Positions 1-11,197 of a stretch of 13,664 bases of DNA are shown here, piece by piece. The stretch lies in UHGV virus genome UHGV-0143428. One strand, given 5' to 3'. Positions within the stretch are counted from its first letter, which is position 1; each line of letters starts with the position of its first letter. Origin of the DNA: a virus. The position numbers and the translations under genes were made by a program. Under the pieces are notes generated by a model that made no database searches, was not told the DNA's origin, and saw only the letters and a list, made by a program, of their open reading frames with translations.

Positions 1-48
1 CGAGATAGGCTCCGGTCTCGTGGGCTCGGAGATGTGTATAAGAGACAG
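1..48. other. Illumina Nextera P7-side adapter (non-biological contig-end contamination)
   Basis: Bases 1-6 CGAGAT (end of P7), 7-14 AGGCTCCG (8-nt i7 index position; as recalled the reverse complement of Nextera index N720 CGGAGCCT), 15-29 GTCTCGTGGGCTCGG, 30-48 AGATGTGTATAAGAGACAG (Tn5 mosaic end). Genomic sequence begins at base 49. Confidence 0.9.
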
Positions 49-50
49 GG

Positions 51-80
51 CTAGGGAAGGCTAACCTTCCCTAGTTTTTT
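51..80. terminator. Perfect 10-bp inverted repeat (CTAGGGAAGG-ctaa-CCTTCCCTAG) plus T6, immediately downstream of the 355-aa gene stop; terminator-like hairpin
   Basis: Stem 51-60 / 65-74, loop 61-64, T-run 75-80 on the + strand. On the minus strand the U-run side would lie in the adapter-truncated region, so its function for the minus-strand operon cannot be confirmed. Confidence 0.4.
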
Positions 81-81
81 A

Positions 82-1149
82 TTAGATAAGATCTTCCTCA
101 TCATGATCAAAGCCATACTGTAGAGCTTCAGATAGCTCAATTTGCTTATTTAAGTGTAGATTCACTCGAACAGCAATCCATTTAGCTGGACTTCCCATAC
201 CTGCTATATCCCCTATAGCAGCATTTCTTATCATTGCAGCTCCCCAAGAGTCCTCCCTTTGATAATGTGGATACTCTGCCAAAATTGATTTCGCAGCTTC
301 AATGAACCCTTCTTTATTCATCCCAGGGCGGCGCTCGAAATACCATGAATCATTTAACGCTATATCAATTCTAGGAACATATCGCCCAATTATGTTGTCA
401 TACACTACTGAATGAATTGAACCATGATCGCCATAAATAGCGACATCACTTCCACCAATATTTTGATGCAATTCTCTCTCAATAACATCAATATATCCGG
501 ACTGTCCATTTTCACGGCAAAAATTTGTAACTGAACTAGGGAAGCTTGTTGCTAGCACACTAATTATGGCTTCAGGAATCTCAGTTCTAATCTGATTAAT
601 CGAATTTATTGCTGCAGCTGTTATAGCAGATACATTCCCTCTAATGTAGCCCAAATCTATGAAAACTATGGCATTTTCTGGAGAGTTCATCGATACTAGT
701 GACGTCAGGGTTTTATTAATGTCTGTATTTAGATTTCTAATTCTAAATGCAATTGAACCTTTAAGTTCCTCTAAAACCCTGGCTTGGATAGATATATCTC
801 TAAGTTTTGCTGAATCCGGCATCTGGACTACTGGAATAATATTATCATTTCTGGAACAAAACTCTATCCAGTTTTTAAAACCATTCTCAGGAGAGAGTAG
901 TTCGAAGCTTGACGCGCAATGATGAGAATTATCCTTTGTGACATCCAAAATAAATGGGAGATTACTCATCACTTCTAAACTTTTATCTAACGATACCTGT
1001 ATTTCTTCCGAGCGAGGCCATTTCCCCAAAGAAATTAAAGGTAATATTTTTTTCTTATTCTCATATGATAAATTATTCAGTCCGGTCATTTCTGCTGATC
1101 GTGTTCTTAGGGCTGGATAGTATGAGTAATTTTCAAAATATACTTTCAT
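82..1149 (-). CDS. Hypothetical 355-aa soluble protein, distal gene of the hotspot cassette; candidate P4 beta-type protein (unverified)
   Basis: Uninterrupted 355-codon ORF with a GGAGG RBS about 11 nt upstream of the ATG. The start lies 2 nt after the stop of the upstream 133-aa gene (TAA-AT-ATG), indicating translational coupling. About 37% GC versus about 55-60% in psu/alpha. No Walker A or other motif I can recognise by eye. It sits where P4 carries gop-beta-cII, between cos and int. Confidence 0.7.
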   Translation of the reverse strand: MKVYFENYSYYPALRTRSAEMTGLNNLSYENKKKILPLISLGKWPRSEEIQVSLDKSLEVMSNLPFILDVTKDNSHHCASSFELLSPENGFKNWIEFCSRNDNIIPVVQMPDSAKLRDISIQARVLEELKGSIAFRIRNLNTDINKTLTSLVSMNSPENAIVFIDLGYIRGNVSAITAAAINSINQIRTEIPEAIISVLATSFPSSVTNFCRENGQSGYIDVIERELHQNIGGSDVAIYGDHGSIHSVVYDNIIGRYVPRIDIALNDSWYFERRPGMNKEGFIEAAKSILAEYPHYQREDSWGAAMIRNAAIGDIAGMGSPAKWIAVRVNLHLNKQIELSEALQYGFDHDEEDLI

Positions 1150-1151
1150 AT

Positions 1152-1553
1152 TTAATTAGCCTCCGAATCGATATTTTCTGGTCGGCTTGCTGTTCTTGGC
1201 ATAGCGTTAATTTGGGGGTTCTGAGTAGCAAGATAAGCAGCTATACTTTCCATCTTCTCTTTCTGTTCTGAAGTTCTTGCAAGTTCTTTAATCAATTCTT
1301 TGTTTTCAGCCATCAAGTTTTGATTGGATTCATTATGACTCTTGATTACCTCCATATTACTTTTTATAACATTCGTGTGGTTGTTGCTAATTGCTTTAAT
1401 CGTTCTGTGTGTAAACCATCCAATAAGTAAAGCAGCTAACCATCCAGAACAAACGAGCAACCATTGTGAAATATCTTGGTTGCGGATGAAGCTAGTAGCA
1501 ATAGTGATTATGGTCCCAACAACGCCAATTAATCCATATACATGATTCAGCAT
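1152..1553 (-). CDS. 133-aa small membrane protein (two N-terminal TM helices plus charged coiled-coil tail); candidate toxin/effector of the hotspot cassette, possibly gop-type (unverified)
   Basis: Hydrophobic segments at about residues 6-23 (YGLIGVVGTIITIATSFI) and 31-47 (WLLVCSGWLAALLIGWF), followed by a K/E/N-rich helical tail. It is the first gene after cos, transcribed away from cos, and is AT-rich like its partner. Confidence 0.6.
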   Translation of the reverse strand: MLNHVYGLIGVVGTIITIATSFIRNQDISQWLLVCSGWLAALLIGWFTHRTIKAISNNHTNVIKSNMEVIKSHNESNQNLMAENKELIKELARTSEQKEKMESIAAYLATQNPQINAMPRTASRPENIDSEAN

Positions 1554-1780
1554 CCTTTAACTCTCTCATGCCACGAATTCTTAAGGATCTTGCGACACTG
1601 ACAAGAACCACCTTACATCAATCTATTTTTTGCATATTTTTCAGGATAGTGCCATCAAAAAAGACAGTTTTGGACCATAGGCCATAGATTTTCTTCATTA
1701 TGCTCCAATGTATTAACGAGGTATGTACTGAAGGCACTTTGACTACACAAATAATTAACTAACTTGTCGGTTTGCGCGCG

Positions 1781-1799
1781 GTGCTTTCCCCGCCTCGCC
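1781..1799. other. cos site: P2/P4-type 19-nt cohesive end sequence
   Basis: GTGCTTTCCCCGCCTCGCC at 1781-1799 is the reverse complement of GGCGAGGCGGGGAAAGCAC, the cohesive end of P2/186/P4 as I recall it. It is located just beyond the psu stop, as in P4. Confidence 0.8.
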
Positions 1800-1900
1800 C
1801 GCCCGCTTTGCGGGGCGGTTTTAATGCAGTTGCACTGACACGCTCAGACCGCGCCGGGAATGGCGCGGTTTGCAGAAAATGAGGCAGGAAAACGCATGCA

Positions 1901-1934
1901 AAGCCATGCACCTTATCGATGCATGGCTTTTTTC
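1901..1934. terminator. Intrinsic-terminator-like hairpin between psu stop and cos
   Basis: AAGCCATGCA (1901-1910), 9-nt loop, TGCATGGCTT (1920-1929), then a T-run on the + strand. It lies about 30 bp downstream of the psu stop codon (1965) on the opposite strand, so it is possibly bidirectional. Confidence 0.45.
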
Positions 1935-1964
1935 AGTAAAAACAGGCGGATTTTTCGGGGAGTT

Positions 1965-2537
1965 TTACACAGACTGACGTGATGCCAGTTCTGCACTTTT
2001 ACGCGAAAAAATCATGTTCTGCGCAGGGGTGAATTTTTCACGGCTGTCATCCACCGAAGCCGCGTCAGGCCTGAATCCGATGGTCGTTAAAATGTCGCTA
2101 TCCTGTGCGGAATAATTAATTTTTTCCCCCTTCGCAAGCCAGGACAGAAGGGCTTCACGCAGGGCATCTGTGGCACGCTGTATGGCACAGTTTCGGGCAA
2201 TGGCCGTCAGCTCACTGTAGCCCATCAGCTCCGGTGCCAGTGCGGCCGCCAGTGCTGTGCCGTGCTGCTGCATAAAATCATTCAGCCGCTCGCGGATGCT
2301 GATGTGCTGAACGGCTTCATGCGAACGAATATAACGACCGGCGGCCTGATTCACCTGCCATTTTCTGACTTCGATAATATTGCGTAATTCGTCCAGGCGA
2401 CTGACGTTTCTGCCTTCTCCTGACAGAAGCCGCAGATATTCCTGTTCGGCCGCTGCCAGCTCATTTTTGCGTTGCAGCCATGCTGCTTTGTTATTCTGAC
2501 AGGTGTCAAAGGCCTGCTGTAAGGCTGTGCTTTCCAT
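1965..2537 (-). CDS. psu: Psu, polarity suppression / capsid decoration protein (P4-type)
   Basis: 190-aa ORF starting MESTALQQAFDTCQNNK. Length and N-terminus match my recollection of P4 Psu. It is the last gene of the sid-delta-psu operon, adjacent to cos. Confidence 0.85.
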   Translation of the reverse strand: MESTALQQAFDTCQNNKAAWLQRKNELAAAEQEYLRLLSGEGRNVSRLDELRNIIEVRKWQVNQAAGRYIRSHEAVQHISIRERLNDFMQQHGTALAAALAPELMGYSELTAIARNCAIQRATDALREALLSWLAKGEKINYSAQDSDILTTIGFRPDAASVDDSREKFTPAQNMIFSRKSAELASRQSV

Positions 2538-2610
2538 CGTTATCTCTTTCTCATCATGCTGAAGAATAAAAATACGGTGTGCGGCGACGGCCGGTGTTAA
2601 CCGGCAGCCC

Positions 2611-3111
2611 TCATTCCAGACGCAGCGAATATGATTGTGTTTTTAACCGTACTGGCGGCAGTTCCTGTTTTTCATGCAGGCGTTCTGCCAGTTCGTCCGG
2701 CGTGACCGGGCGGACAATGAAGCGGTTGATGGTCTGAAGCGTTTTAAACACCAGACCACAGCCCGGATCCGTGCACACATAAAAACGCTCGGTGACTTCC
2801 TGAGACAGACGCCGCGATGTTCTTGACAGTGCAAGGCCTTTACATCTCCGACAACAATATCCGGTAACAAGCATTCTTTTCGGGCGTTTCATACCGCAGG
2901 AGGCTGACGTCAGTGAATCGCGGTATCTCTGTTTGCCTGAAATGTATTCCATTCCTGAATCTTTACTGTCAGAGAAAAAGCTTTCACTCGCTTCAAATGT
3001 CGCAGAGCAATAAATATTCCGGCACTGTGCAATCATTATCTTGGTGCCATCGTCCATGAAATGTGCGCGACGGGTGTGAGCAACATGTCCACACGACGGA
3101 CAGTAAATCAT
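2611..3111 (-). CDS. delta: Delta, late-gene transcriptional activator (tandem Ogr-type zinc-finger protein)
   Basis: 166 aa. Two Ogr-like Cys4 units (CPSCGH...CRNIYC near the N-terminus, and CCRRCKG...CTDPGC in the second half). Its start overlaps the sid stop (ATGA). Length matches P4 Delta as recalled. Confidence 0.85.
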   Translation of the reverse strand: MIYCPSCGHVAHTRRAHFMDDGTKIMIAQCRNIYCSATFEASESFFSDSKDSGMEYISGKQRYRDSLTSASCGMKRPKRMLVTGYCCRRCKGLALSRTSRRLSQEVTERFYVCTDPGCGLVFKTLQTINRFIVRPVTPDELAERLHEKQELPPVRLKTQSYSLRLE

Positions 3112-3842
3112 GACAGCAGCCCTCTGGCCTTAAGCTCTGCTCCCTGCTGGTCTATTTTGTCCTGCCACACCTTGCGCTGTGCCGGTGTGCCTGCCACCTC
3201 ATAATCCATGTGCGGGAGTGTTGCCGCTGACAGTCCGGTCAGCCGGAGAACCGGCTCGCCGGTGAGGCTGATTTGCATCTGTTTAATTTTCTGTTCCAGC
3301 GATGATTTCACCTGCTGCATGACAGCCTTTTCCGGTGCGACGTAGCCCTGATGGCCGGTGGTGTTGGCGAGCGGATTTTCCTGTACCAGAATGCTCAGAT
3401 GCATTGCCCGGACAAGCGCCTCACAGGTTTCATTCAGGGCGTGTTCCAGCTCATGCTCTGCATACAGACTCAGAAGGTGATGATGTGCCTTCCGGTAGGC
3501 GGTGGCCGTGCTGTCACACGCCCCTTTCAGGCGTTCACGTTCGAAATTCAGCACCACGGCCAGATTGTCATATTCCTGTACCAGCTCCCGGCGTGCCACG
3601 CGCTCAATGTGGCGCTGTTTCAGCTCGTCGCTCAGGACACCACCGGCTGCACGAAAGGCCGTGCGCCAGTCGTCAGCGTCGTTTCCGTCGGCCTGCGCCA
3701 GCGCATTTTTTTCCTGCTCTGCCCGTTCAATGGCCGTGACGGTCTCATCCATCAGGCGGGCGTTCTCAAGATGGGCGGCTCTGGCCTTTTCCAGTTGTGC
3801 CAGTGCGGGTTGCAGATATTCAGGGATAGTGTGGTCAGACAT
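3108..3842 (-). CDS. sid: Sid, capsid size-determination (external scaffold) protein
   Basis: The ORF is open from 3860, but the GAGGAG RBS sits 8 nt upstream of the internal ATG at 3842 (MSDHTIPEYL...), giving 244 aa, the P4 Sid length as recalled. It is a helical, Q/E/A-rich protein and the first gene of the late operon. Confidence 0.85.
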   Translation of the reverse strand: MSDHTIPEYLQPALAQLEKARAAHLENARLMDETVTAIERAEQEKNALAQADGNDADDWRTAFRAAGGVLSDELKQRHIERVARRELVQEYDNLAVVLNFERERLKGACDSTATAYRKAHHHLLSLYAEHELEHALNETCEALVRAMHLSILVQENPLANTTGHQGYVAPEKAVMQQVKSSLEQKIKQMQISLTGEPVLRLTGLSAATLPHMDYEVAGTPAQRKVWQDKIDQQGAELKARGLLS

Positions 3843-3914
3843 TTTCCGGCTCCTCGTCACTTCAGGTTAAGAAAATTGTGACGTACACCGGACAACAACA
3901 CGACGCATTGCAGA

Positions 3915-3932
3915 TGTGCCAGCCCTGACACA
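3915..3932 (-). promoter_or_regulatory. Candidate Delta/Ogr binding dyad (TGT-N12-ACA) of the sid late promoter
   Basis: TGTGCCAGCCCTGACACA. Its centre is about 80 bp upstream of the sid ATG, which would place a transcription start about 25 nt upstream of the ATG if the dyad is centred at -55, as in P2/P4 late promoters. The motif is short and could occur by chance. Confidence 0.3.
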
Positions 3933-4011
3933 GGAGACTCATCCTCAGACCGGCAAGCCAGGAAAAGGTCGCAGGAAAAACCGGCTTACTGTTTGTTTTT
4001 TTATATTTTAC

Positions 4012-4116
4012 TGTTCACCTCTGTTCACCTTAATAAAAAAGATAAGTAATACAGTAAGTTAAAGGGTGAACAATCGCAGTAATGACTGTTCACCGTCTGT
4101 TCACCACTGTTCACCC
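4012..4116. repeat. Iteron cluster (TGTTCACC octamers), ori-like alpha-protein binding region
   Basis: Direct copies of TGTTCACC at 4012, 4022, 4087, 4098 and 4109, and one inverted copy (GGTGAACA) at 4065. Flanked by AT-rich tracts. P4 alpha binds iterons of this type in ori and crr (recalled). Confidence 0.75.
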
Positions 4117-4219
4117 GTTGATGGGCTTTTTGTGCTGTTTACTACTGTTTGTTTTTATTAATTCGCCGGGAATGAATAAGAAGAAACGATTTGTATTTCA
4201 CTATAAAAATTACAAATTG

Positions 4220-4249
4220 CTTTAAGTGGCTTTAAATGACTTTAAGTGG
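4220..4249 (+). promoter_or_regulatory. Helically phased triple CTTTAA repeat / duplicated TTTAAGTGG upstream of vis (candidate operator/promoter element)
   Basis: CTTTAA at 4220, 4230 and 4240 (exact 10-bp phasing). TTTAAGTGG at 4221-4229 and 4241-4249. It is located about 150 bp upstream of the vis start in an AT-rich region. Confidence 0.35.
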
Positions 4250-4394
4250 AGATGAACAAAAAACACACAGCCATTGTAAGGCAGCCTGAACAAATCCCCC
4301 CTGTTGCGTCTGCTGAAAATATTCACAAAATAAAGCGCTACCCGAAGCCGGACGGACTTATCCGGTGCTGTATGGACATTAACGAGGTAGCCCG

Positions 4395-4661
4395 ATGCAA
4401 GCTGTTTTTTCTTCCCCGTCTCCCGCCCCAGTGACGCCACTGATGCCGCTGCCGGACATCACGCAGGAGCGTTTTTTACGTCTGCCGGAAGTGATGCACC
4501 TGTGCGGCCTGTCACGCTCGACCATCTACGAACTCATCCGTAAGGGGGAATTTCCGCCGCAGGTGAGTCTTGGCGGTAAAAATGTGGCCTGGCTGCACTC
4601 TGAAGTCACCGCATGGATGGCCGGGCGCATTGCCGGACGCAAACGGGGGTACGACGCATGA
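4395..4661 (+). CDS. vis: Vis/AlpA-family excisionase-type transcriptional regulator
   Basis: 88-aa ORF with the AlpA-family signature ([32 protein letters not shown]). GAGGT RBS 8 nt upstream of the ATG at 4395. An internal start at MPLPD cannot be excluded. Confidence 0.75.
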
Positions 4662-5059
4662 TGATGCCCGCTCTGCAAAAACTCCCTTTTTCTGGCTTGC
4701 CTTTTTCCGGCATTTGCGGATATAGTTTTTCCGCTGCCGCAAAATCGGCAGCCGGGCGTGAGAACCCGAGCAATTCACAGGCGACATATGACGCGCCACG
4801 CGTCTTTTTTTGTGTCGCAATCAATGCCACAGAGCGCCAGATTATGGTGTGGTGTGTGGTCAGTCGTGCAGATGGCATTCCGTGCATCCTGCCCGCGTCC
4901 GCTCATTATGCCGCAGAGTCAATGGTAGCTCAGGCGGGGCAGCCTCCGGGCTGGCCGGTATCCGTTAGAGCCGGTATTCTCACCCCCGTCTGGGCTATCG
5001 CCATCGAGCGTGAGAACTCCGGCGATAGCGTTATTTGCTATTCACAGGAGGCTGCCATC

Positions 5060-5257
5060 ATGGCTACAACCCTTACCCCCTCACACCCTGAATTTGTCTT
5101 TGTGTTTGCGGCTGTCCGTCGCGCAGACCGTCATCCCCGTATCTGTATGCTTCGCACCGTCGCCGGTGATGAACGCAGTGCCCGCCGTTCCCTTGTCCGT
5201 GACTATGTGCTCTCCCTTGCTGCCCGTCTGCCGGTGGTGGAGGTGTCCCGTGCGTAA
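5060..5257 (+). CDS. Small hypothetical protein (65 aa) of the leftward operon, translationally coupled to the epsilon-like gene
   Basis: An internal ATG at 5060 within the long 4613-5257 reading frame is preceded by AGGAGG 7 nt upstream. The stop overlaps the GTG start of the next gene. The upstream part of the long ORF is more likely RNA/leader. Confidence 0.4.
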
Positions 5258-5537
5258 TAAAAAAGCCCCTCAGACCGTCTCAGCGCGTCATGACGCCCGT
5301 GAACACCTCAGCATTGAGGCTTACCATAAGCTCAACCGCGCCAGCGCCGTATCCCGGTTTGTTGGGGGTGATTTGATTCACCGTGAACTCTCCGGCCTGC
5401 ATCAGCTCTACATTCCGCATATTTTCAGCTACCTGAATGAAGATATTGATTTTGTGCTGAATGAGCTGAAAGCCAAAGGCCTGTGCCGCGATTTTCTCGC
5501 CCAGCAGAAAGACCGGGGAGACAGGACGCATGTTTGA
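5250..5537 (+). CDS. Epsilon-like protein (P2-derepression factor position), about 95 aa, GTG start
   Basis: GTG at 5250 preceded by GGAGGTG 5-6 nt upstream, in frame through the stop at 5535-5537, which overlaps the ATG of the orf151-like gene. Size and position relative to orf151/alpha match P4 epsilon as recalled; the sequence identity is not verified. Confidence 0.5.
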
Positions 5538-5985
5538 TTTTCCCCAGCCCGGTGAGATTTACCGTTCTGCCGGTTTTCCCGATGTGGCCGTGGTCGGCAT
5601 TCTGGAAGACGGTATTCCGTGGGAAATGCCGTACCGCTGCCCGGACATTGTCTGGAACCCGTACCGCCGTAAATTCAGTATCCTTGTGCGTATCCTCGCT
5701 GACGGACGCACCACAGACATCCCGCTGGGGCGTTTTCTGCGGGAATTTACCTGTGACCGTCCTGACCTGTTTAAACGCAGCCCCGTAAACCGGCATTCGG
5801 TACTGAAAGAAATGGCCGGAGACCCGGAATTACAGAAATGGCGGGAAAAATATCTGGATATTTACCCGCAGGACACTGTTCCGGTCAGCCGGGCAGCACC
5901 GGTGGCGCGGGAATGGCGGGAAATTCCCCGCACGGAGCCTGACCCGGAAACCACCCCGGATAACAGTTACCGCAATTATCTGTAA
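5530..5985 (+). CDS. orf151-like protein (151 aa) of the alpha operon
   Basis: Exactly 151 codons. Its ATG overlaps the upstream gene's stop. It lies upstream of alpha, as does P4 orf151. Confidence 0.65.
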   Translation: MFDFPQPGEIYRSAGFPDVAVVGILEDGIPWEMPYRCPDIVWNPYRRKFSILVRILADGRTTDIPLGRFLREFTCDRPDLFKRSPVNRHSVLKEMAGDPELQKWREKYLDIYPQDTVPVSRAAPVAREWREIPRTEPDPETTPDNSYRNYL

Positions 5986-6120
5986 TTAAAAAACGACCCC
6001 CGAAAAATTAAATGTGCGTATTCGCGCAGGGATACGCACGTCTTCAGGAGACGCAGATATGCCTTATCAGTTAATGCAACCGGCACGGAATGCAGTCATC
6101 TGTCACAGGGAGAAAAGCAA

Positions 6121-6441
6121 ATGAAAACACCCTTACCGCCCGTCTTACGCGCTGCCCTTTACCGTCGCGCTGTCGCCTGTGCCTGGCTGACCGTGTGCGA
6201 ACGTCAGCACCGCTACCCGCATCTCACCCTTGAATCACTGGAGGCGGCCATCGCCGCTGAGCTGGAAGGCTTTTATCTGCGCCAGCACGGTGAGGAAAAA
6301 GGGCGCCAGATAGCCTGTGCCCTGCTGGAAGATTTAATGGAATCCGGCCCCCTGAAGGCCGCGCCGTCGCTGTCCTTTCTCGGGCTGGTTGTGATGGATG
6401 AACTCTGTGCCCGTCACATAAAAGCGCCGGTACTGCACTGA
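6121..6441 (+). CDS. Hypothetical 106-aa protein immediately upstream of alpha
   Basis: ORF with a GGGAGA RBS, ending 14 bp before the alpha start. Preceded by a 21-codon upstream ORF whose TGA overlaps its ATG. Confidence 0.55.
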
Positions 6442-6455
6442 AGGAGAACAACACC

Positions 6456-8789
6456 ATGAAAATGAACGTAACCGCCACCGTCAGCCATGCGCTCGGCCAC
6501 TGGCCGCGTATTCTCCCGGCGCTGGGGATTCAGGTGCTGAAGAACCGTCATCAGCCCTGTCCGGTCTGTGGCGGGAGTGACCGTTTCCGTTTTGATGACA
6601 GGGAGGGGCGCGGCACCTGGTACTGCAATCAGTGTGGTGCCGGTGACGGCCTGAAACTGGTTGAAAAGGTGTTTGGTGTTTCCCCGTCCGACGCGGCCGC
6701 AAAGGTGGCTGCCGTGACCGGCAGCCTGCCACCGGCTGACCCGGCAGTGACGACCGCCGCCGGTGCTGAAACAGACGCTGCCCGGAAGAACGCCGCCGCA
6801 CTGGCACAAACCCTGATGGCGAAAACCCGTCCCGGAACCGGTAACGCCTACCTGACCCGCAAGGGCTTTCCCGGCCGGGAATGCCGGATGCTGACCGGCA
6901 CACACAGAGCCGGTGGCGTGAGCTGGCGCGCCGGTGACCTTGTGGTGCCACTGTATGACGACAGCGGCGAACTGGTTAACCTTCAGTTAATCAGTGCTGA
7001 CGGCCGTAAGCGCACCCTGAAAGGCGGGCAGGTCAGGGGCACCTGTCACATCCTTGAAGGACAGAATCAGGCCGGAAAACGTCTGTGGATAGCGGAGGGA
7101 TACGCGACCGCACTTACCGTGCATCACCTGACCGGTGAAACGGTGATGGTGGCGCTTTCTTCCGTGAACCTCCTTTCTCTGGCCAGCCTTGCCCGGCAGA
7201 AGCATCCGGCCTGTCAGATTGTCCTTGCCGCAGACCGTGACCTCAGCGGTGACGGCCAGAAAAAAGCCGCCGCAGCCGCAGATGCGTGTGAGGGCGTTGT
7301 TGCCCTGCCGCCGGTCTTCGGTGACTGGAATGATGCCTTCACGCAGTACGGCAGGGAGGCCACCCGTAAGGCCATTTATGATGCCATCCGGCCACCGGCT
7401 GAAAGCCCGTTCGACACCATGAGCGAAGCGGAGTTTTCCGCCATGAGTACCAGCGAAAAGGCCATGCGTATCTATGAGCATTACGGCGAGGCGCTCGCGG
7501 TCGATGCCAACGGCCAGCTTCTGTCCCGCTATGAAAATGGTGTCTGGAAGGTGCTGCCACCACAGGACTTTGCCCGGGATGTGGCCGGGCTGTTTCAGCG
7601 TCTGCGCGCGCCGTTCTCCTCCGGGAAGGTGGCCTCCGTGGTGGACACCCTGAAGCTGATTATTCCGCAGCAGGAAGCCCCCTCCCGCCGCCTGATTGGC
7701 TTTCGTAACGGCGTGCTCGACACGCAGAACGGCACGTTCCACCCGCACAGTCCGTCACACTGGATGCGCACCCTGTGCGATGTGGATTTCACCCCGCCGG
7801 TGGACGGTGAAACGCTGGAGACCCACGCCCCCGCGTTCTGGCGCTGGCTTGACCGTGCCGCCGGTGGCCGTGCGGAAAAACGCGACGTGATTCTGGCCGC
7901 ACTGTTTATGGTGCTGGCAAACCGCTACGACTGGCAGCTCTTTCTGGAGGTGACCGGTCCCGGCGGCAGCGGCAAAAGTATCATGGCCGAAATAGCCACC
8001 CTGCTGGCCGGGGAGGATAACGCCACGTCGGCCACCATTGAGACGCTGGAATCCCCGCGTGAACGTGCCGCGTTAACTGGCTTCTCACTGATACGCCTGC
8101 CGGACCAGGAAAAATGGAGCGGCGACGGTGCCGGACTCAAGGCCATCACCGGCGGCGATGCGGTGTCCGTTGACCCGAAATACCGGGATGCGTACTCCAC
8201 GCATATCCCGGCGGTGATTCTGGCCGTGAACAATAACCCGATGCGCTTCACCGACCGCAGCGGCGGCGTGTCACGCCGGCGGGTGATTATTCACTTCCCG
8301 GAACAGATAGCCCCGCAGGAGCGCGACCCGCAGCTTAAGGACAAAATCACCCGCGAGCTGGCGGTCATCGTGCGTCACCTGATGCAGAAGTTCAGCGACC
8401 CGATGCTCGCCCGGTCACTGCTTCAGTCCCAGCAGAACTCAGACGAGGCGCTGAACATCAAACGGGATGCCGACCCGACGTTTGATTTTATCGGCTATCT
8501 GGAAACCCTGCCGCAGACCAGCGGCATGTATATGGGGAACGCCAGTATCATCCCGCGCAATTACCGTAAATACCTCTATCACGCCTATCTGGCCTACATG
8601 GAGGCAAACGGCTACCGGAATGTACTCAGTCTGAAAATGTTCGGGCTGGGGCTGCCGGTGATGCTGAAGGAATACGGACTGAATTACGAGAAGCGCCATA
8701 CCAAACAGGGGATACAGACCAACCTGACGCTGAAAGAGGAAAGCTACGGCGACTGGCTGCCAAAATGTGACGACCCTACAACAGCCTGA
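6456..8789 (+). CDS. alpha: Alpha protein: bifunctional primase-helicase with C-terminal origin-binding domain
   Basis: 777 aa, the P4 alpha length as recalled. N-terminal zinc motif CPVCGG...YCNQCG, TOPRIM-like EGYATALTV and LAADRD, Walker A GPGGSGKS at 7951-7974, and Walker-B-like acidic residues. AAGGAG RBS 8 nt upstream of the ATG. Confidence 0.9.
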   Translation: MKMNVTATVSHALGHWPRILPALGIQVLKNRHQPCPVCGGSDRFRFDDREGRGTWYCNQCGAGDGLKLVEKVFGVSPSDAAAKVAAVTGSLPPADPAVTTAAGAETDAARKNAAALAQTLMAKTRPGTGNAYLTRKGFPGRECRMLTGTHRAGGVSWRAGDLVVPLYDDSGELVNLQLISADGRKRTLKGGQVRGTCHILEGQNQAGKRLWIAEGYATALTVHHLTGETVMVALSSVNLLSLASLARQKHPACQIVLAADRDLSGDGQKKAAAAADACEGVVALPPVFGDWNDAFTQYGREATRKAIYDAIRPPAESPFDTMSEAEFSAMSTSEKAMRIYEHYGEALAVDANGQLLSRYENGVWKVLPPQDFARDVAGLFQRLRAPFSSGKVASVVDTLKLIIPQQEAPSRRLIGFRNGVLDTQNGTFHPHSPSHWMRTLCDVDFTPPVDGETLETHAPAFWRWLDRAAGGRAEKRDVILAALFMVLANRYDWQLFLEVTGPGGSGKSIMAEIATLLAGEDNATSATIETLESPRERAALTGFSLIRLPDQEKWSGDGAGLKAITGGDAVSVDPKYRDAYSTHIPAVILAVNNNPMRFTDRSGGVSRRRVIIHFPEQIAPQERDPQLKDKITRELAVIVRHLMQKFSDPMLARSLLQSQQNSDEALNIKRDADPTFDFIGYLETLPQTSGMYMGNASIIPRNYRKYLYHAYLAYMEANGYRNVLSLKMFGLGLPVMLKEYGLNYEKRHTKQGIQTNLTLKEESYGDWLPKCDDPTTA

Positions 8790-8837
8790 CCCACCTGACC
8801 GGCATCTGCCGGTCTTTTTTTATCCCGACATCCCCCG

Positions 8838-9115
8838 AAGGTGAACAATCCACTGTTCACCCTTCACCGTATATTCACCCGTTATCACACTGAAATTAAA
8901 AGAGAAAAACGAAAGGTGAACAGTGTGAACAATCAAATCAAAAAAAACTTTTTTCTTCCTGAGTGATTTCAGTGCGGAGGATTAATCACCGGTATGAGTC
9001 ACACCGGCAGAATGCCGGAGGTGAAGAATCGAATGTTCACCCTTCACCCATTATTCACCACCTATCACTCTGAAATAAAAGGAGAAAACAGAAAGGTGAA
9101 CAGTGTGAACAGTTC
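8838..9115. repeat. crr-like cis replication region: two ~97-bp direct repeats (about 85% identical, period 180 bp) each carrying several iterons and followed by an A-run/T-run block
   Basis: Repeat A at 8838-8934 and repeat B at 9018-9114. Each contains GGTGAACA, TGTTCACC, CTTCACC, ATTCACC and the terminal GAAAGGTGAACAGTGTGAACA. A7/T6 tracts follow at 8938-8954 and 9120-9136. Confidence 0.75.
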
Positions 9116-9326
9116 TTTCGAAAAAAAATTTTTTATGTGGATAAAAGATGCACTGGTTTGGATCCGAGCTACGGATCCAAACTTACTGATTAAAAATGAT
9201 TTAACTTTCCGATTTATTGATGGGCTGAAAATAGATTGGTCAGAAAAACAGTGGGGGCACAAAAGGGGGCATATTTCATTGTTGTGTTTTATTATTTGTT
9301 TTTTATCATTAACTTATTTTGATGTT

Positions 9327-9346
9327 TGAGTCCGGCCTTCGCACCA
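9327..9346 (+). other. att core: 20-bp copy of a tRNA 3' end (T-arm/acceptor/CCA), tRNA-Leu (leuX)-like
   Basis: TGAGTCCGGCCTTCGCACCA matches, with one missing G, the 3' end of E. coli tRNA-Leu(CAA) as I recall it (..TTCGAGTCCGGCCTTCGGCACCA). Upstream sequence is AT-rich and not tRNA-like, so this is a core repeat (attR-type) rather than a full tRNA gene. Confidence 0.6.
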
Positions 9347-9359
9347 AAAGTATGTAAAT

Positions 9360-9384
9360 AGACCTCAACTGAGGTCTTTTTTTA
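9360..9384 (+). terminator. Rho-independent terminator (tRNA-type terminator on the chromosomal side of the att core)
   Basis: AGACCTC (9360-9366), loop AACT, GAGGTCT (9371-9377), followed by T7 (9378-9384). Confidence 0.7.
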
Positions 9385-9459
9385 TGCCTGAAATCCAGTG
9401 TTTATCTATCTTTCCCGCTATATTAACTCTCTCAAGGTCAACCGATATCAACGTACATC

Positions 9460-9477
9460 TACCAACATATGTTGGTA
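9460..9477. promoter_or_regulatory. 18-bp perfect palindrome TACCAACATATGTTGGTA in the integrase promoter region, plus a third half-site
   Basis: Perfect dyad at 9460-9477. An additional TACCAACA half-site at 9511-9518 lies just upstream of the int RBS (GGGAGGG). Candidate Int arm-type or repressor site. Confidence 0.45.
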
Positions 9478-9531
9478 CAGATGATGGTATTTCCGGTTCG
9501 ATAATGCTTGTACCAACAGGGAGGGAATACG

Positions 9532-10797
9532 ATGGCATTAACAGATATCAAAGTCAGAGCAGCCAAGCCAACGGATAAGCAATATTAGCTGACTGATGGT
9601 GGCGGTATGCATCTGCTTGTCCATCCAAATGGTTCTAAGTACTGGCGTTTGCAGTACCGTTATGAGGGAAAGCAAAAAATGCTGGCACTTGGGGTTTATC
9701 CTGAAATCACACTAGCGGATGCCAGAGTACGTCGTGACGAGACGCGTAAGCTGCTTGCGAATGGCGTCGATCCGGGAGACAAAAAGAAAAATGATAAGGT
9801 TGAACAGAGTAAAGCACGAACCTTTAAAGAAGTCGCGATTGAGTGGCATGGCACCAATAAAAAGTGGTCTGAAGATCACGCCCATCGTGTGCTAAAAAGT
9901 CTTGAAGATAATCTTTTTGCAGCGCTTGGTGAACGTAATATCGCTGAGTTAAAAACTCGAGATTTATTAGCACCTATTAAGGCCGTAGAAATGTCTGGAC
10001 GTCTTGAAGTGGCCGCTCGTCTTCAGCAGCGCACTACAGCCATCATGCGCTATGCAGTGCAAAGTGGGTTAATTGATTATAACCCGGCACAAGAGATGGC
10101 TGGGGCGGTTGCTTCCTGTAATCGACAACATCGTCCCGCGCTTGAATTAAAGCGCATCCCTGAGTTGCTTACAAAAATAGATAGCTATACTGGTAGGCCG
10201 CTAACCCGATGGGCGATAGAACTCACTTTGCTGATCTTTATTCGGTCCAGTGAGCTGCGTTTTGCTCGTTGGTCAGAGATCGATTTCGAAGCGTCTATAT
10301 GGACTATCCCACCGGAGCGGGAGCCTATTCCTGGAGTGAAACATTCCCATAGAGGCTCAAAAATGCGTACAACGCATCTAGTGCCTCTTTCAACGCAAGC
10401 TCTTGCAATTTTAAAGCAGATAAAACAGTTTTATGGGGCCCATGACTTGATATTTATTGGTGATCACGATTCGCACAAACCCATGAGTGAGAATACGGTA
10501 AATAGTGCGTTACGGGTCATGGGGTATGATACAAAAGTAGAGGTTTGTGGTCATGGCTTTCGAACAATGGCCTGTAGTTCATTGGTCGAATCAGGTCTGT
10601 GGTCTCGTGATGCTGTTGAACGTCAGATGAGCCACATGGCGCGAAATTCAGTGAGGGCCGCGTATATCCATAAAGCAGAGCATCTGGAAGAACGGCGATT
10701 GATGCTACAGTGGTGGGCCGATTTTCTGGATGTAAACAGAGAAAGGTTTATCAGTCCATTTGAATATGCAAAGATTAATAATCCATTAAAACAGTAA
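9532..10797 (+). pseudogene. int: P4-family tyrosine integrase with an in-frame amber codon at codon 19 (N-terminally disrupted; 396-aa ORF remains from an internal Met)
   Basis: ATG at 9532 with RBS encodes MALTDIKVRAAKPTDKQY, then TAG at 9586-9588, then in the same frame LTDGGGMHLLVHPNGSKYW... This is the conserved P4-type integrase N-terminus interrupted by a stop. The downstream ORF 9607-10797 carries the integrase catalytic region (R..H..R..Y type C-terminus). Confidence 0.8.
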
Positions 10798-11197
10798 TCA
10801 TCCCGGGCAAATGCCCGGGAATTATTCTAGGATTATTTTCTTTGTTAAAAAAGACAAACGGTATTAACTGATGTATTTACTATTTACCGCTCCCTGCAGG
10901 GGGGATTATCAGAATCCGCGGTTATTCATTATTTATATACATTCAATAAAAAAGTAACCTCATAAAAAATCCTGTACTCACAGGGTGATGCGGGATAACT
11001 GACGTAAGGAGTGCTGCAGGGATTTGATGGTCCCTTGTGCTGATATGAATACGGATATTTTATACAGAATACTTTTCAGTACAAGCGACTGTATTACAGT
11101 CTGCCATATATGATTACCTGTGATCAGGAAGAATAAGTGGCTGAGGTTTCAAACTGTCTGCCGGTATATTCCTCTCTCCCTTAAAAACCATAACAGG

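Follow-up and report, generated by a model that had tools for sequence, protein, structure and literature searches.

The window, by which we mean the whole stretch of DNA that was analysed (13,664 nucleotides of the virus genome UHGV-0143428), carries satellite DNA up to position 9346 and Escherichia coli chromosomal DNA from 9347 onward. The features to which we refer below are the following.

1-47, no strand assigned: Illumina Nextera i7 adapter, CGAGAT-AGGCTCCG-GTCTCGTGGGCTCGG-AGATGTGTATAAGAGACAG, read directly from the sequence and covered by no P4 or E. coli match
48-9346, no strand assigned: P4-like satellite, integrated, right-hand part of about 9.3 kb, 99.4% identical to X51522/NC_001609
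from 48, at the start of the satellite: last 7 nt of cII and its terminator, following the P4 annotation
82-1149, minus strand: beta
1152-1553, minus strand: gop
about 1799/1800: joined cos ends
1965-2537, minus strand: psu
2611-3111, minus strand: delta
3108-3860, minus strand: sid
6456-8789, plus strand: alpha, 777 aa
8835-9134, plus strand: crr, the cis-required replication region of P4, with two 120-bp direct repeats (NC_001609 feature 4291-4590 and sequence identity)
9251-9274, plus strand: two tandem 12-bp P4 Int arm-type repeats, GTGGGGGCACAA and AAGGGGGCATAT, of the attP left arm, kept at attR (NC_001609 4151-4162 and 4163-4174)
9328-9346, plus strand: attR core, satellite-borne copy, 19 bp, GAGTCCGGCCTTCGCACCA; the leuX 3' end minus one G, with the P4 match ending at 9346
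9347-9384, plus strand: native leuX 3' trailer and rho-independent terminator (stem 9360-9377, T-run 9378-9384), identical to MG1655 after leuX
9460-9467, 9470-9477 (inverted) and 9511-9518, no strand assigned: three copies of TACCAACA, candidate arm-type sites of the older island's integrase, from a repeat search
9532-10797, plus strand: intB, P4-family tyrosine integrase pseudogene of an older island (PR-Y/KpLE2), identified by translation, Pfam and the MG1655 match

The similarity of the left part of the window to P4 falls into two pieces across the joined cos ends and stops exactly at 9346, the last base of the core. The satellite genes follow one another in the order cII end, beta, gop, cos, psu, delta, sid, immunity and early region, alpha, crr, attP left arm and core, and the sizes of the ORFs agree with those of P4. 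For crr, P4 coordinates were converted to those of the window by subtracting them from 13425. The window begins at P4 position 1752, and P4 1753-4077, comprising what remains of cII together with int and the attP right arm, is absent. Given this missing segment and the order of the P4 map, the int end of the integrated P4 would lie to the left of the window. Over 6450-9346 (2.9 kb), in a comparison of three sequences, the window had 12 private substitutions, the P4 reference 18 and a natural prophage 36. Judged by these substitutions the satellite is a natural variant of P4, and this is one of its differences from the reference phage. The 12 window-private substitutions also ruled out that the window is laboratory P4, in which case the single G in its core (discussed below) would have proven an error in the reference.

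Half of those substitutions (6 of the 12) fall within about 150 bp of alpha, at 7205-7353, a cluster that looks like a small recombination patch. An ORF of 111 aa (8994-9329) reaches from crr through the attP left arm to the beginning of the core; it has no Pfam match, the only corresponding entry in NC_001609 is the GeneMark prediction P4p05, and it is probably not a gene. Window 48-1553, with the cII terminator, beta and gop, corresponds to the variable region between int and cos, and here it holds the classical P4 genes. The beta and gop region of P4-like satellites sits in a defence hotspot. Defence hotspots in these satellites were characterised in a 2026 survey (PMC13586616).

A first reading of this DNA from the sequence alone had placed a contig break to the left of the satellite. 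The contig does end there, but its end is artefactual: positions 1-47 are a Nextera i7 adapter with index AGGCTCCG. This left end is an adapter artefact fused to P4 sequence at 48 and not biology, and it should be trimmed as contamination.

Read directly, window 9327-9384 is T-GAGTCCGGCCTTCGCACCA-aaagtatgtaaat-AGACCTCAACTGAGGTCT-TTTTTT, where aaagtatgtaaat is a 13-nt spacer between the core and the hairpin AGACCTCAACTGAGGTCT. We aligned the 19-mer GAGTCCGGCCTTCGCACCA with the last 20 nt of leuX, the tRNA-Leu(CAA) gene, using as reference the gene called by ARAGORN in MG1655 (E. coli K-12). The two are identical minus one G of the CGGC run, so that 19 of 20 positions match. The sequence-only reading had described a 20-bp tRNA 3' end, leuX-like and one base short; its comparison with a host-type tRNA holds, as the match to K-12 leuX minus one G shows, but the core has 19 and not 20 identical positions. 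The 19-mer occurs once in the window, and no chance match was found in 200 shuffles with up to 3 mismatches allowed. ARAGORN found no complete tRNA cloverleaf in the window (0 genes), and the tRNA-like part is confined to the last 19 nt. The DNA to the left of it is thus satellite and not the remainder of a tRNA, in agreement with what had been read from the sequence.

From 9347 the window corresponds to the DNA downstream of leuX in MG1655, the identity beginning at the base after the leuX ACCA. Over about 1.7 kb there is one SNP; IS2K is absent, and the sequences are then identical through yjgX and yjgZ. A terminator scan predicted a terminator at 9360-9384, with a 7-bp stem, a 4-nt loop and the T-run TTTTTTT, which bears out the canonical terminator noticed earlier; since the right flank is identical to MG1655 after leuX, we regard it as the native leuX terminator. 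The integrase gene noted about 185 bp downstream is also there, the intB ATG lying at 9532, 185 nt after the core. Its product has the domains Arm-DNA-bind_3 (PF13356), Phage_int_M (PF22022) and Phage_integrase (PF00589), all above their cut-offs, and shares 59% amino acid identity with P4 Int. The reading frame is not intact: an in-frame TAG stands at codon 19 (9586-9588), as in K-12, and an ORF of 396 aa resumes at 9607. MG1655 likewise annotates intB as a pseudogene, within 'cryptic prophage PR-Y' at this position, and the sole difference between the two intB copies is the SNP at 9742 (A versus G). IS2K, which in MG1655 lies between intB and yjgX, is missing at window position 11038 or thereabouts. 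By its sequence the host is K-12-like but not MG1655.

Just upstream of intB, at the place that the GGGGGCA repeats of P4 take with respect to the start of int, lie the three copies of TACCAACA. They differ from GGGGGCA, and we infer from their placement that they may be the older island's own arm-type sites.

These two flanks identify the junction. On the left are crr and the Int arm-type repeats, as at a P4 prophage attR, and over X05947 1-175 (window 9173-9346) a single gap is the sole difference from the P4 attachment site, whose feature is labelled '20 bp core seq. within attP'. A four-way alignment of the window, P4 attP, K-12 attB and a natural attL showed that the window follows the P4 attP left arm up to the core and the K-12 leuX trailer beyond it. 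This is the textbook picture of attP x attB giving attL and attR. We are highly confident that the feature is an attR, which arose when a P4-type satellite inserted itself at the 3' end of leuX in a K-12-like E. coli through site-specific recombination mediated by Int. The likeness to P4 attR at leuX extends to the left arm, crr, the two arm-type repeats and the core, which are those of P4 attP, to the target, the tRNA-Leu(CAA) 3' end, and to the right flank, which is that of K-12 attB; the difference is the core, with 19 rather than 20 matching positions and one G fewer than in X05947 and NC_001609. The recombination of P4 attP with E. coli attB at leuX was reportedly described by Pierson and Kahn in 1987.

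The order alpha, crr, core and integrase on one strand is also that of P4 itself, and the same arrangement would be seen if a P4-like genome were free, as a circle or in a virion, with its attP-int module intact; no second island would then be needed. However, the P4 match ends with the core and there is no P4 similarity to the right of 9346. The right flank is instead chromosomal, being that of MG1655 downstream of leuX including the tRNA terminator, and it differs from the right arm in X05947. The integrase shares only 59% identity with P4 Int, the repeats beside it are different, and the window runs on into yjgX and yjgZ while the cII-int-right arm segment of P4 (1753-4077) is absent. The end of the P4 match at the core and the MG1655 right flank together refute a free attP-int module of circular P4, to which we assign practically no probability.

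An integrated attR predicts a complete prophage around it, and such prophages were found in other genomes. In E. coli N61 the order is ahr, leuX, int, cII, beta, gop, psu, delta, sid, further genes, alpha, attR and a second integrase (intB), followed by a phosphoethanolamine-transferase pseudogene. FAM21845 agrees with N61 in gene order, with the fec genes of KpLE2 coming next, and its int is interrupted by IS1. In these two closest complete genomes the attL of the P4-type prophage is seen, with intact leuX, the P4 right arm and int. It had been proposed that the satellite sits in the tRNA gene with its own int and the intact tRNA lying leftward; the absence of P4 1753-4077 from the window agrees with this, and N61 and FAM21845 show int and the tRNA in just that place. 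From these relatives we infer that the prophage in the source strain would be complete, with attL, the satellite int and intact leuX to the left of the window.

Of 5,426 complete E. coli genomes, 65 hold at least 80% of window 8800-9700, and 140-187 hold the junction of left arm, core and terminator. These counts bear on whether the junction could be an assembly chimera, in which a P4 contig and a chromosomal contig were joined through the tRNA-like core. The Nextera adapter at 1-47 speaks for faulty assembly, as does the fact that a core repeat common to attL and attR can mislead short-read assemblers. The junction, however, recurs with all of 131 nt unchanged in many closed E. coli genomes, it is the one that integration predicts, and had the contigs been joined through the core, the GG of leuX would more likely have come with it. 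A chimera is therefore very improbable. The attR of a P4-type prophage abutting the dead integrase of an older island at leuX is a known and common arrangement. P4-related sequence beside attB in K-12 is said to have been noticed by Pierson and Kahn in 1987, when the P4 att sites were first sequenced. leuX belongs to the tDNA sites at which integration is most frequent in E. coli (PMC7545054).

Integration split the site, with the intact tRNA, the satellite right arm and int going to attL, left of the window, and the satellite left arm (crr and the two Int arm sites) with its own core copy becoming joined to the old leuX trailer and terminator. The leuX terminator was thereby orphaned and no longer stands behind a tRNA. 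An attR at this position accounts for both the orphan terminator and the orphan tRNA fragment. The DNA downstream of leuX was by then already an older, decayed P4-family island (PR-Y/KpLE2), with intB 185 bp after the tRNA; since the DNA beside attB already held the left end of that island, the new prophage lies in tandem with the old. Tandem islands at one tRNA site had been proposed from the sequence, and the complete layouts of N61 and FAM21845, together with PR-Y beside leuX in MG1655, support that proposal.

The second integrase had been ascribed to an older P4-family island with an integrase of its own. That it belongs to a separate element stands, with 59% amino acid identity to P4 Int, but it is a pseudogene with the TAG at codon 19; the integrase at 9532-10797 is part of a separate, dead element and not of the satellite. 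A search for a second copy of the core, in the 20-bp or 19-bp form and with up to 3 mismatches, found none within 50 kb downstream of leuX in MG1655. With intB a pseudogene and no distal core copy in MG1655 within that distance, the older island is inert in this background. Since, moreover, the arm repeats of the two elements differ, P4 attL and attR, acted on by P4 Int plus Vis, would be the only pair able to recombine. Recombination between the islands and cross-regulation through Int and Vis, which the sequence-only reading had anticipated, are for the same reasons unlikely here.

Compared with PR-Y/KpLE2 of K-12 (intB, b4271), the stretch from the leuX trailer to yjgZ, intB and yjgX included, is identical bar one SNP and carries the same TAG; the window differs in having no IS2K and in the P4-like prophage that separates the element from leuX. 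As in other tandem islands at tRNA hot spots, one tDNA holds two elements that each have a P4-family integrase, and a displaced tRNA 3' fragment marks the boundary between them, in a layout found in dozens of complete genomes. Unlike those, the downstream element of the window is a remnant that has neither a working integrase nor a distal att site, so that the array could not rearrange through the older element's own system. The tandem at leuX is thus a familiar re-use of a tRNA integration hot spot. Its value is mainly for annotation: the satellite ends on the right exactly at 9346/9347, and the list of its genes should leave out the integrase at 9532-10797.

The one respect in which the junction departs from P4 is the G run of its core, where the window has a single G at 9341 and leuX has GG. 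The reference attP records (X05947 and NC_001609) give a 20-bp core with GG, like leuX. We compared other junctions for this base and found the single G in the majority of natural attR sites. Against a GG query, 35 of the best 40 of 187 E. coli junctions were one base shorter, and attR sites of the GG type amounted to only 3 exact and 2 near-exact matches among the same best 40 of 187; a single-G query gave exact matches in many E. coli lineages. E. coli attL sites with the P4 right arm aligned without a gap to the GG form, and FAM21845 has both states in one genome, GG at attL and a single G at attR. Outside these genomes, the single G was present in all 8 of 8 IMG/VR prophage ends, which have at least 4 different right flanks, in 5 of 5 metagenomic junctions between the left arm of a satellite and a right arm of P4 type, and in 14 loci spread over 8 further genera of enterobacteria (Erwinia, Pantoea, Dryocola, Mangrovibacter, Atlantibacter, Scandinavium, Serratia and Pseudescherichia), where the left arms had diverged too far for alignment. 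In the same multi-genus scan GG was found at 3 loci (Pantoea, Tatumella and Veillonellaceae) where the core stands behind a GCCGG T-stem as in a tRNA, at one Pseudescherichia attR-like site, and at 3 loci in deltaproteobacterial/Desulfobacterales MAGs with flanks unrelated to P4.

The missing G might have arisen by mutation after integration, 'locking in' the prophage, and would then be silent on the position of the crossover. The GG of the reference P4 attP is in keeping with this, as is the partial decay of many prophages with the junction (for example FAM21845, its int cut by IS1), and the O157:H7 matches, being clonal, count as one event. The same deletion, however, stands beside at least 4 unrelated right flanks, beside P4-type right arms and in 8 further genera. 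A run of two Gs is no slippage hot spot, and to suppose that one and the same deletion recurred is far less parsimonious than to suppose that it was inherited with the left arm. We consider a secondary mutation unlikely.

The distribution of the single G suggests instead a core copy that lacks the G in the satellite itself, with strand exchange on the 3' side of the missing base, within at most the last 6 bp (GCACCA) of leuX; the crossover is placed 3' of the G run because the single G always stays with the satellite left arm while the tRNA at attL keeps GG. GCACCA would be the end of the acceptor stem with the discriminator base and CCA, and the deletion, neither entering the tRNA nor being repaired from it, would serve as a natural marker. 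The tRNA body at attL would then stay entirely host-derived, and the single-G variant would be carried back into attP on excision. Against this stand the GG of the reference attP and the few natural attR sites with GG, and the searches described below yielded no free attP, from virion or plasmid, sequenced by modern methods. On balance we lean, by a narrow preference, towards a P4 '20-bp core' that really matches leuX over 14 + 5 bp and has a one-base deletion conserved in the satellite copy; on this view Int exchange would occur in GCACCA, the upstream 14 bp would act only as an Int core-binding site, and the GG of the reference would be a sequencing error or a rare variant. If confirmed, the core variant would refine the position at which P4-family integrases cut and would correct a reference annotation of 1987 that is still used to delimit P4-like elements. 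The junction also resembles the class of integration at the asymmetric 3' end of tRNA genes that Williams is said to have set out in 2002, in that the shared block is the 3' end of a tRNA gene and the exchange would lie at its extreme 3' end; it differs in that the use of a one-base mismatch between satellite and tRNA as a marker comes from the present analysis. Full-text literature searches and the P4/P2 survey PMC13586616, a scope that leaves the original P4 att papers outside, gave no mention of a 19-bp versus a 20-bp core. The one-base variant may be new as a detail, and is a modest lead for specialists in site-specific recombination.

A free attP form was found in 0 records at 80% coverage or more in complete E. 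coli genomes, and in none of the PLSDB plasmids or IMG/VR entries. Junctions of the attP type were present on five metagenome contigs, those of the 5 of 5 count above, and the one examined in detail (L014, OGRX01000413.1) has an apparent internal junction of a tandem array. Its positions 1-10823 hold alpha, crr, the junction and int; a second 183-aa ORF follows 9.8 kb after the first, and there is no long DNA repeat. It looks like two different P4-like satellites head to tail, a true satellite-satellite tandem array and not an episome.

The Pantoea, Tatumella and Veillonellaceae MAG loci with GG (L030 3378-3505, L032 7215-7342 and L025 11-138) are tRNA-like 3' halves with the GCCGG T-stem and an intact GG acceptor end. 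Their T-loop reads TTTGAGT, with T in place of the conserved tRNA C56, and they may be functional tRNA variants or island-borne copies.
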